From UHGV virus genome UHGV-2031204: 64,000 nt of DNA, one strand, 5' to 3'. The DNA is from a virus. The notes beneath the pieces were generated by a model, which saw only the letters and a program-made list of their open reading frames with translations, was not told the origin of the DNA and ran no database searches. The translations under genes and the position numbers were made by a program. Of the stretch, positions 49,156-52,329 are shown piece by piece (the first letter of the stretch is position 1; each line of letters starts with the position of its first letter).

Positions 49156-49196
49156 TACCCTACTCCTGACTAGGAGTAGGGTATTTTCATTTTTTA
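49156..49196 (+). terminator. intrinsic terminator (CCCTACTCC family)
   Basis: 12-bp stem TACCCTACTCCT/AGGAGTAGGGTA then TTTTCATTTTTT. Confidence 0.7.
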
Positions 49197-49214: not shown

Positions 49215-49583
49215 ATGCAAGCTCAGTTTTTTAGTACACCCAAAGGTTTCGGTTTTAAATTCCCTGAATTTGTTTTACCAAAACAAGTTATTGAGGTACC
49301 CTTCCCCCGTTATGTGCAATTAGGACTGCGCACTGTACTTGCCAACTTTTCGGGAAAGACTGTGGAATTTCGTGTGTGGGAAGGTTCGGGAAGTCCTGGC
49401 GGTGTTATGTTTGTTGATTACAATTGGATTAAAAGAACAGGTTTTCCGCTTGTACGAACAGTTGAGGCTGCTCGTGGATTACCCTTCCACGCTCTACTGG
49501 AAGATATAACGTTACCTGTAACTGGCGATTATTCTTCTCCTGCGGATGACGAATACCAAATTCATCTTGTTTTGTTGAAATGA
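49215..49583 (+). CDS. hypothetical protein (122 aa)
   Basis: Track ORF with AAGGAG RBS. Confidence 0.5.
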   Translation: MQAQFFSTPKGFGFKFPEFVLPKQVIEVPFPRYVQLGLRTVLANFSGKTVEFRVWEGSGSPGGVMFVDYNWIKRTGFPLVRTVEAARGLPFHALLEDITLPVTGDYSSPADDEYQIHLVLLK

Positions 49584-49643
49584 TTTTTACAGTTGGGAAC
49601 AGACTTATGTCTCCCAAGACTGCGTTTAAGTGGAGAAACAATT

Positions 49644-50108
49644 ATGCGTGGATATATTCTCGATCTTGCAATTTCTGTAGAAGAACTTGTGGAAAAACTC
49701 GGCGGTACCGGTCATGGGCTTCATGGGAAGACCAAAAGCATAGCTCATCTTCTCGAACCAAAATACGAACGGAAACTCCACATGATTGCTTCCGTTCGCA
49801 ACAAAGCCGCTCACAGGAGAGTTCTTCCCGATCGCATAGACGTCTATGAACAAGCTGTGGAAGAAACGAGGCTCTATTTAGAAGAACTGATTGGGGAAGA
49901 AGAACGGAAACGTCGTTGTGAAGAGGAAATAAATCCCAGCTGTCTGGAACGCGAAGCGATGTGGAGAGAACGGGCAGAAGAGGCCAAACGACGTAACGAA
50001 AAGAAAAGATGGGACGATATGAGTGTAATAGAAAAGATAGGTTGGGGTGCCGGGATTGCAATCGTGGGAGCTGCGGTTGCGTACCTTAAAATAAAGTCTC
50101 GTGACTAA
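49644..50108 (+). CDS. HEPN-like (Rx4H) protein with C-terminal TM helix (~154 aa)
   Basis: Track ORF from TTG 49593; GGAG RBS precedes in-frame ATG 49644; motif SVRNKAAH fits HEPN Rx4-6H; C-terminal hydrophobic IGWGAGIAIVGAAVAYL. Confidence 0.4.
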   Translation: MRGYILDLAISVEELVEKLGGTGHGLHGKTKSIAHLLEPKYERKLHMIASVRNKAAHRRVLPDRIDVYEQAVEETRLYLEELIGEEERKRRCEEEINPSCLEREAMWRERAEEAKRRNEKKRWDDMSVIEKIGWGAGIAIVGAAVAYLKIKSRD

Positions 50109-50122
50109 ATCGGGTATCGGAA

Positions 50123-50668
50123 ATGAAACAAATACAGTTAACTGATCACGTTAATGCGTTTAAACACTTTCTGGATAACGCGGGTATAAAACCTGGCGAA
50201 CAGACAGACGCATGGACTGCACGTGTTTATGGAAGTATTGGCAAAGTCTGTGAATCCACAACAACACACGATGGGTTGTTTGTTGCTAAAGCAGTAGGTA
50301 TTGCCTTGTGGGATCTTGCTGCCTTGGTTTACGTGATGAATAACGGGGATTTACGCCCCCTTGAAAAATCGTTACACAGACTACTAGCCATTAAGAAATG
50401 GAAAAACGAACATCCTGAAACAATCGCGGTGACGTTGATGCCAGAAGCGGTACTTGCCATCAAAGCGGTACGCAGTTGTACCGCACGCGCACAAATGGAG
50501 CGTCGACTACACCTCACGACGCTCTTTTATCAGTTGGCTAGAATTGTAAAGATGAACGGCCTAATCTTCGACCGGGTTCTACAAAACGGACGTATAAGTT
50601 GGACAGAAGAACTAAGCAGTTCTCCGTTCTATACAAAACTAAAGCTTAAAGACATTTTGAAGGATTAA
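50123..50668 (+). CDS. hypothetical protein (181 aa)
   Basis: Track ORF. Confidence 0.5.
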   Translation: MKQIQLTDHVNAFKHFLDNAGIKPGEQTDAWTARVYGSIGKVCESTTTHDGLFVAKAVGIALWDLAALVYVMNNGDLRPLEKSLHRLLAIKKWKNEHPETIAVTLMPEAVLAIKAVRSCTARAQMERRLHLTTLFYQLARIVKMNGLIFDRVLQNGRISWTEELSSSPFYTKLKLKDILKD

Positions 50669-50669
50669 C

Positions 50670-50978
50670 ATGGAAAACTATTCGGGTTGGGCAATTTCGC
50701 AGTGCATTGGTTATTCTTTACGTTCTTTAGTGCGTACACTTTATAACAAAAACTCAGGCGAAGCTATTACACCACAGTTACTGGGCAAATTGGAAGTCGA
50801 AGTTAACCACAAATTAAAGCAGTTACTCGACAGCCACGTAAGAACAATGCGTTGGGAGTTCTTGCTACGTGGTAAGAAGCCAACAATTACCGTTGTAGCA
50901 GAAGGCAGTGAAATCGTACTGCAATCCAACGCAGACCTATTTGAAATTTTAACTGAACTCGAAAGGGACAAAATCTGA
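50670..50978 (+). CDS. hypothetical protein (102 aa)
   Basis: Track ORF; tightly coupled to neighbours. Confidence 0.45.
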   Translation: MENYSGWAISQCIGYSLRSLVRTLYNKNSGEAITPQLLGKLEVEVNHKLKQLLDSHVRTMRWEFLLRGKKPTITVVAEGSEIVLQSNADLFEILTELERDKI

Positions 50979-51298
50979 TGGTTACGAACGACAATATCAA
51001 GAAAAAGATTGACGAAATTATAAGCGTCAGTTTAGATAGAATCGAATTAATTCCCGAAACTAAGGAGATCAAATATTACGTTCCTGCGGACGAACTATTT
51101 CCAGGTCTTCTTAGAATCTCACCAAAAAAGGTTGAAGAGGCTAAACGGCAATTCGAAGTTCGTGGCCTTAAGGTTGACATTGTTAACAAAAAACATTTCC
51201 ATGTAACGTATAGCCAGGAAAACATTATATTTAGTCCTGAACAAGCGCAACGTAATTTAGATATTTTAACGAAACGAATGGGGAATAATAACAAATGA
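50978..51298 (+). CDS. hypothetical protein (106 aa)
   Basis: Track ORF; overlaps thyA start. Confidence 0.45.
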
Positions 51299-52329
51299 AA
51301 CAGTATTTAGCGTTAATGCAAGACATTCTGGATAACGGTGTTGTCAAGAAAGACCGCACAGGTGTAGGGACACTATCTGTATTTGGTCGTCAACTACGTT
51401 TTGATCTGAAAGAAGGTTTCCCATTAGTTACTACGAAGAAGGTTCACCTGAAAAGTATCATTCATGAACTGTTGTGGTTCTTAAACGGTGACACTAACGT
51501 GAAGTACCTGCAAGAGAACGGGGTAAAAATCTGGAACGAATGGAGTGATGAAGAGGGGAACTTAGGGCCAGTTTATGGTAAACAATGGCGCGAATGGCGC
51601 GACTGTAAAGTTGTGGAGTGTCATGACGTAAGACGTACACAACAACTAATGCAACGGGGTTACAAGTATATTGGGAATATGAAGGAAGATGGTACGACGT
51701 ATTTGGTTTATGAAAAACCACATGACCAGATCAGCAAAGTTATCCAACAACTTCGTGAAGACCCTGACTCCCGCCGTATTATCGTTAGCGCCTGGAATGT
51801 AGGTGACCTGGACGATATGGCACTTAATCCATGCCACAACTATTTCCAATTCTACACAACAGAAATGACGTTGCTTGAACGACTGGATTGGTACGAAGCA
51901 AATGAACCGGAAAAATTTGCGAACGCGCCACTTATTAATCACGAAGATATTGATGATGAAGAACGACTTCATGAAACTTTAGATCGTGAAGGTATCCCTC
52001 GTCGTAAGCTTTCATGTTTTTACATGATGCGCAGCAACGATGTCGCATTAGGAAAACCGTTCAACATCGCGTCATACGCTCTGTTAACTCATATAGTTGC
52101 CCAACAAGTGAATATGGTTCCCGATGAGTTAGTTTATAGTGGGGTCGATGTGCATTTATATCTGAACCACATCGATCAAATAAAACTCCAGTTGACTCGT
52201 GAGCCGTACCCGTTACCTAAATTGGTTATTAAACGTAAACCCGAATCTATCTTCGACTACAAATACGAGGACTTTGAAGTAGTCGGTTACCAATCACACC
52301 CACACATCGCCATGCCTGTCGCGGTGTAA
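51295..52329 (+). CDS. thyA: thymidylate synthase (ThyA-type, 344 aa, with two insertions)
   Basis: Collinear with E. coli ThyA (as I recall it): [65 protein letters not shown], catalytic [28 protein letters not shown]; ~32-aa and ~46-aa extra segments. Confidence 0.9.

Follow-up and report, generated by a model that had tools for sequence, protein, structure and literature searches.

Many systems of CRISPR, abortive infection and toxin-antitoxin type have HEPN ribonucleases (RNases) at their core as effectors, mostly on the side of the host. Domains of the DUF4145 family are placed in the HEPN clan, and fusions of DUF4145 with transmembrane (TM) segments were catalogued in 2013 (Table 1 of PMC3710099); in the defence protein RAZR (PD-T7-4) the DUF4145 domain has RNase activity, for which both its arginine and its histidine are required (PMC13017515). 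The 'HEPN-TM' defence system of phage-inducible chromosomal islands (PICI), in the outline given in PMC12948488 (which cites Fillol-Salom et al. 2022), likewise combines HEPN with TM elements; it is carried by a mobile element and is directed against rival phages. The KEN domain of Ire1 and RNase L has also been classified as HEPN (PMC3710099), and Ire1 is a HEPN-type RNase that is tethered by a single TM segment and switched on by lateral oligomerisation. Here we describe a gene with features of these systems at positions 49644-50108 of a 64,000-nucleotide stretch of virus genome UHGV-2031204; this whole stretch is referred to as the window.

The 154-residue product of this gene is carried by a virus and predicted to be fixed in the membrane, and we give the explanation proposed below, a tail-anchored member of the HEPN superfamily that would cut RNA and most likely act in genetic conflict, a confidence of about 0.6. 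DUF4145-TM fusions and the PICI system are already known; the novelty lies in a defined subfamily with a tail anchor and in its occurrence in persistent jumbo phages of the Seoul-like group. HEPN is not mentioned in a comparative survey of jumbo phages.

A predicted HEPN domain with a C-terminal anchor

The open reading frame (ORF) 49644-50108 (stop codon included), noted in the original prediction, is a gene on the + strand, as are the hairpin and the 122-aa and 181-aa ORFs described below, and is supported by relatives, by alignment and by its ratio of non-synonymous to synonymous substitutions (dN/dS). A Shine-Dalgarno GGAG (49632-49635) lies 8 nt 5′ of the ATG. All relatives begin with the same MR... 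in the alignment, and the start is therefore placed at the ATG at 49644 and not at an upstream TTG at 49593. The protein opens with MRGYILDLAISVEELVEKLGGTGHGLHGKTKSIAHLLEPKYERKLHMIASVRNKAAHRR..., continues through a stretch rich in E, R and K, and closes with IGWGAGIAIVGAAVAYL and KIKSRD. An ORF of 139 aa on the opposite strand (49642-50061) was set aside as a mere consequence of the coding sequence on the + strand. Nothing unusual is seen in the gene's GC content, which thus gives no compositional sign of recent foreign origin.

AlphaFold2 (AF2), run with an alignment of 20 of the 57 close relatives (136–191 aa, mostly encoded on contigs of 221–226 kb), predicts an N-terminal HEPN/DUF4145-like four-helix domain at residues 1–90 (49644-49913), with helices at 2–18, 25–32, 39–57 and 65–95 and a predicted local confidence (pLDDT) of 87–97; confidence is moderate for the spacer that follows and low for the C-terminal anchor. 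The core up-down four-helix bundle by which the HEPN superfamily (Pfam clan CL0291) is recognised is present in the predicted domain. The original prediction had proposed this modelling as a check, with the lack of a HEPN-type bundle as a refuting outcome; that outcome did not arise. The top Foldseek matches in the PDB are HepT toxins (probability 0.96–0.97, identity 10–19%), with E-values of only 0.1–0.5 that are not significant. Other proteins listed with the fold evidence are YutE, TT1696, the HEPN toxin 7ae2, MtlR, the sacsin HEPN domain, Roquin, GlnE/DrrA, Csm6 and HepS. A Foldseek search of the viral structures in BFVD returned nothing significant for the 154-aa protein.

The putative catalytic motif R52-N53-K-A-A-H57 (49797-49814; R52 codon 49797-99, H57 codon 49812-14) forms part of the SVRNKAAH that had been picked out beforehand and that occupies residues 50–57. 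HEPN RNases carry Rx4-6H where helix 3 ends or where the loop to helix 4 begins, the arginine being followed by a polar N, D or H (PMC3710099), and R52-N53-K-A-A-H57 closes the predicted helix 39–57. A bare Rx4-6H motif alone carries no significance: among the 64 long ORFs of the window, 32 contain Rx4-6H, 19 contain Rx4H and three contain R[NDH]x3H. The motif is nonetheless more than a chance occurrence, because R, N and H are conserved, because they sit where helix 3 ends, and because dN/dS is low. R52, N53 and H57 are invariant in the 20 aligned members of the clade, where residues 1–85 and the C-terminal helix are conserved and the length of the linker varies widely. Among 146 distant relatives the R is kept in 97%, the N in 98% and the H in 99%, within a common signature E..LL...G-A-x-G-x-G-L-H-E-K..S....R-x-I-A..R-N-K..H-E. 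The HEPN-like domain, with dN/dS of about 0.2–0.3 (range 0.16–0.58), is under purifying selection.

An E/R/K-rich spacer (residues 85–128; 49896-50027) separates the domain from the anchor. The original prediction described a charged coiled-coil stretch followed by a single C-terminal hydrophobic helix. The spacer is charged and predicted to be helical; a coiled coil is not demonstrable, since the length of the spacer is very variable across relatives and it is absent in the 136-aa variants. The hydrophobic helix is as described. It is a G/A-rich segment at residues 132–148 (IGWGAGIAIVGAAVAYL; 50037-50087) with small-xxx-small spacing at G135/A139/A143, followed by KIKSRD, and it is conserved in the clade. 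Hydrophobic segments were called by a Kyte-Doolittle scan only. By that scan this segment, at about 132–148/150 and six residues before the C-terminus, is the sole one in the protein, which thus has the layout of a tail-anchored protein, one hydrophobic helix near the C-terminus without a signal peptide. The protein is accordingly predicted from its sequence to insert in the membrane through this helix.

This layout recurs beyond the clade. The HEPN-like domain is N-terminal in 131 of the 146 distant relatives, and a hydrophobic segment lies outside the domain in 114 of them (78%); the exact tail-anchored layout is found in 53, with a median length of 138 aa. A W-[SAD]-[DE] motif ahead of the helix is also common to several relatives at about 30% identity. 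We regard the combination of a HEPN fold and a membrane anchor in the 154-aa protein as very probable.

Relationship to DUF4145 and other HEPN systems

Searching 1.8 billion representative proteins with a profile built on the domain, at a cut-off of E<1e-3, gave 333 relatives. At 90% identity the family falls into at least 559 clusters, of about 110–190 aa, nearly all of them unnamed or called 'hypothetical protein'. Among the best 120 profile matches most are unnamed; one is a 'DUF4145 domain-containing protein' (NCBI), one is an evident misannotation, and the other names are 'hypothetical protein'. When 102 distant relatives were scanned, 20 matched DUF4145 at E<0.01 (best 5.5e-7), six HEPN_Apea, four HEPN_RiboL-PSP and three HEPN_Swt1, and one relative gave a weak PADLOC match to PD-T7-4. 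In the window protein the DUF4145 match is below threshold, with residues 11–59 aligned to positions 21–72 of the 88 in the profile. The family thus lies at the edge of DUF4145: the product of ORF 49644-50108 belongs to the HEPN superfamily, in a distinct, unnamed subfamily that borders DUF4145, and is not a bona fide Pfam DUF4145 protein.

Several members of the family (P0058, P0059, P0060/P0209) contain tandem pairs of HEPN-like domains, each with RNxxxH, which fits a need for two domains per active site. P0058, a partial Escherichia coli protein of 167 aa, has the tandem arrangement and is 57% identical to the window protein.

Several observations weigh against reading the protein as a tail-anchored HEPN RNase. 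DUF4145 (PF13643) is its only Pfam match and scores 13.2 bits against a threshold of 23.1 (E=0.094), and PADLOC (2.0), PHROGs and NCBIfam give no match. When PDB sequences were searched with profiles from the clade and family alignments, the matches were chance ones only, and no solved structure was detected for any family member. In the loop that has the family consensus GRGLHEK, the window copy reads GHGLHGK (R24H, E28G); H24 is also found in the 136-aa variants. The conserved acidic residue E13, present in 83% of the 146 relatives with most of the others gapped there, is in the first predicted helix, whereas the HEPN description puts it in helix 2, as part of Ex3[KR] near the active site. 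The hydropathy of the anchor is modest (Kyte-Doolittle 1.66 over 19 residues), a basic tail lies behind it, and AF2 confidence in it is low.

The protein shares with DUF4145/RAZR the helix pattern and the R-N-x3-H motif, but it lacks a zinc finger, is a tail-anchored single domain with a signature of its own, and is encoded by a lytic or persistent jumbo phage and not by a host defence locus; nothing points to activation through assembly into rings. HepT of the HepT/MntA toxins (Shewanella SO_3166, PDB 5yep; 7ae2) is soluble, whereas the window protein is predicted to be anchored, and unlike the type II HEPN-MNT toxin-antitoxin loci the window locus has no adjacent gene for an MNT nucleotidyltransferase antitoxin. 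The PICI system is reportedly modelled in DefenseFinder with HEPN and TM as two separate proteins, and by that description the window protein is set apart as a single polypeptide. Ire1 is an analogy for action only, in that the window protein has no kinase or lumenal sensor and no detected sequence similarity, and its anchor lies on the C-terminal, not the N-terminal, side of the RNase-like domain. The tail-anchored proteins ElaB, YqjD and YgaM consist of a cytoplasmic helical domain and a G/A-rich C-terminal anchor ending in basic residues, but they are unrelated to the window protein in sequence (no Pfam match) and have no HEPN domain.

The host phage, neighbouring genes and other contexts

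The original prediction took the gene to be phage-encoded, and this is borne out by the neighbouring proteins, which share 55–60% identity with their counterparts in SPN3US, Asesino and further jumbo phages of the Seoul-like group. DNA matches between the window and isolate phages are confined to short segments of about 74% identity. The host element is a Seoul-like (SPN3US-related) jumbo phage of roughly 225 kb. Its clade is known solely from bacterial assemblies and metagenomes and is absent from collections of isolate phages; its contigs of 221–226 kb occur in Salmonella, Shigella and E. coli assemblies, and a circular 'plasmid' of 221,873 bp from the complete genome of E. coli 98232 (NZ_CP173450.1) is the same element, with 93% identity over the 3-kb locus that was queried. 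The clade fits the 'persistent virulent' Seoul-like jumbo phages, which encode chimallin and have been described from bacterial assemblies (bioRxiv 10.1101/2024.12.31.630880).

The HEPN-like family was not found in 50,697 isolate phage genomes, either by megablast of the locus or by tblastn of the protein and the family consensus. The corresponding slot in SPN3US holds the unrelated genes gp226 and gp227. These were considered as positional homologues of the 122-aa ORF just upstream (gp226) and of the HEPN-like protein (gp227) and rejected, gp226 for lack of similarity by BLASTP and hhalign, and gp227 because no common motif could be seen by eye.

A comparison with the E. coli GCA_046223585 variant (L005, 4569-5953), which encodes a HEPN-like protein of 136 aa, defines a mosaic block at 49215-50668. 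Amino acid identities within the block are 59% for the 122-aa ORF, 54% for the HEPN-like protein and 40% for a 181-aa ORF, and the flanking genes are 95–97% identical. DNA identity drops from about 95% to 23–69% over the three genes and returns to 94–97% at the next gene, such that the borders coincide with gene ends. The best-conserved part of the block is the HEPN domain.

Outside the clade the same architecture is present on a prophage, on phage-like contigs, on a conjugative element and on bacterial chromosomes. A search for related loci with a narrower alignment returned six viral loci only. In a Pseudomonas prophage (L010, 5971-7553; the same prophage as L002) the gene lies between tail genes, with a lipoprotein gene two genes downstream of it, and together these two resemble a cluster of accessory genes that may act in exclusion. 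The lipoprotein gene is a 140-aa ORF with the signal LLAGCS. Another relative is on a phage-like contig, and a further one is on a conjugative element beside TraG/TraI-like genes. In a Thermoguttaceae contig (L016, 1193-4726), a single instance, a tandem HEPN-TM gene adjoins a gene for a MoxR-type AAA ATPase and is two genes upstream of RtcB, a ligase that repairs RNA ends with 2′,3′-cyclic phosphates. An all-against-all BLAST of the neighbours in six independent contexts showed the HEPN-like gene to be the sole gene in common, and it is therefore a stand-alone, mobile, accessory module.

In the window, the gene order 219/122/HEPN-like/181/102/106/thyA (sizes in aa) is identical in every clade member examined. 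An intrinsic-terminator-like hairpin with a 12-bp stem, six GC pairs and a 4-nt loop, followed by TTTTCATTTT, is located at 49156-49193 (hairpin 49156-49183 plus T tract) and terminates the upstream 219-aa gene; no similar hairpin was found between the 122-aa and HEPN-like genes or before thyA. The 122-aa ORF (49215-49583) begins 22 nt after it, has an AAGGAG ribosome-binding site and is a real, conserved gene limited to the clade, with no match by tblastn in the 50,697 isolate phage genomes. Its AF2 model is uninformative (pLDDT 40.7). The N-terminus (QFFSTPKGFGFKFPE ... GKTVEFRVWEGSGSPGGV) has a weak likeness to cold-shock domains, with an RNP1-like KGFGF; the match to CspE has E=0.036, and hhalign gives a probability of 21% over 58 collinear columns (CspA/CspE). 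The likeness is seen in one of ten members of the family of this ORF, with no Pfam match. The ORF may encode a divergent RNA-binding OB fold beside the predicted RNase.

Downstream, the 181-aa ORF (50123-50668) corresponds to the N-terminal half of a phrog_10269/SPN3US gp228-like protein. Together with the 102-aa ORF (50123-50978 for the two) it matches the N- and C-terminal halves of phrog_10269 (profile length 299), and the two occupy the slot of the single 289-aa gene gp228 in SPN3US; the gp228-like gene is apparently split throughout the clade. The thyA gene of the window (51295-52329) is intact, with a divergent patch at about 51525-51720 that is 50–65% identical to three relatives. In a close relative (L007, 6715-8839) thyA is split into 254 aa and 99 aa by a GIY-YIG/NUMOD3/I-TevI-like homing-endonuclease gene, as in the T4 td intron.

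Possible function and competing explanations

In the mechanism that we propose, the protein would insert in the inner membrane with its N-terminal HEPN domain in the cytoplasm and would dimerise as HEPN RNases do, aided by the G/A-rich anchor and the spacer. R52, N53 and H57 would then cleave RNA without a metal and leave 2′,3′-cyclic phosphate ends. The tether would limit the enzyme to RNA near the membrane and, by analogy with Ire1, activity could need clustering within it. We consider RNase activity somewhat more likely than not. The most likely role would be that of an accessory conflict gene that excludes rival phages or elements or degrades host RNA locally. An accessory or conflict character is suggested by the different content of the SPN3US slot, the lack of the gene in isolate phages, the mosaic block, and the prophage, conjugative-element and RtcB contexts; a role in conflict or exclusion is itself put forward tentatively, at somewhat less than even odds. 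A core replication or virion function for the gene is unlikely.

The domain might instead not cut at all and be a module for binding, or an adaptor, that is held at the membrane. It could, for instance, be an anti-defence decoy, forming heterodimers with a host HEPN effector and so inactivating it, or a binder of a nucleotide signal. Host shut-off and a decoy, both raised in the original prediction, are conjectures. Many HEPN domains are non-catalytic binding modules of this type, for example those in fusions with nucleotidyltransferases and MtlR (PMC3710099); the gene evolves fast in the phage and is accessory there, and the window copy departs from the GRGLHEK loop consensus; moreover, an RNase that is always on and has no detectable partner could be toxic to its own bearer. 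Yet non-catalytic HEPN families typically lack Rx4-6H (PMC3710099), whereas R, N and H are kept at 97–99% across the deep family, and a decoy makes less sense for the copies of the same architecture that bacterial chromosomes and a conjugative element carry. We consider a non-cutting module unlikely. Less likely by a wide measure than the RNase, too, and the least favoured of the explanations weighed here, is a small membrane protein that serves lysis timing, membrane remodelling or structure, for instance in holin/antiholin regulation, with the bundle as a scaffold and the R and H non-catalytic. Its appeal is that the size and topology, a cytoplasmic helical domain with one C-terminal TM segment, resemble those of many phage membrane proteins, that four-helix bundles are common and the Foldseek E-values not significant, and that the bare motif is frequent by chance.

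The original prediction also raised a toxin/antitoxin-like pairing with the upstream 122-aa ORF, and a broader form of this idea is an obligate module that joins the HEPN-like protein to the 122-aa ORF, and perhaps to the 181-aa ORF as well, and in which a neighbour neutralises or directs the RNase. The 122-aa and HEPN-like genes are on the same strand and 60 nt apart, with a terminator upstream and none between them; the order 219/122/HEPN-like/181 is invariant in the clade members examined; and the three genes diverge together from L005 while their flanks do not. That co-divergence is equally explained by one recombination block. The cold-shock likeness of the 122-aa ORF also speaks for such a module, but it is weak on every measure given above. 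In favour, too, the conjugative element has an unrelated 117-aa gene overlapping the start of its HEPN-like gene; against it, the Pseudomonas prophage copy is preceded by about 1.7 kb without a called gene. No MNT nucleotidyltransferase or other antitoxin domain was detected in the flanking ORFs (Pfam, PHROGs, NCBIfam), the 122-aa ORF occurs in this clade only, and the family has no conserved neighbour across the six contexts. The toxin-antitoxin idea is thus unsupported, and we rate the obligate module slightly below the non-cutting module in plausibility.

Returning to a tail-anchored HEPN RNase, the membrane tether would, as speculation, keep the enzyme away from a central phage nucleus. 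A much bolder extension, which we regard as a long shot, is that persistent, nucleus-forming Seoul-like phages use a membrane RNase to hold their niche, destroying the transcripts of superinfecting phages at the envelope while their own RNA is made in the phage nucleus, or that the protein is an addiction or growth-control factor that stabilises the long-term carriage observed in bacterial isolates; the wider family would then form a new class of single-gene, membrane-gated RNase modules that serve exclusion and are carried by mobile elements.

If active, the protein would represent, in compact form, a bacterial equivalent of RNA decay by a membrane-tethered enzyme in the manner of Ire1, and it would be a candidate for a role in persistent infection or in exclusion between phages. 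The family gives annotation pipelines a clear sequence signature, and the small size of its members suits direct mutational and biochemical tests.
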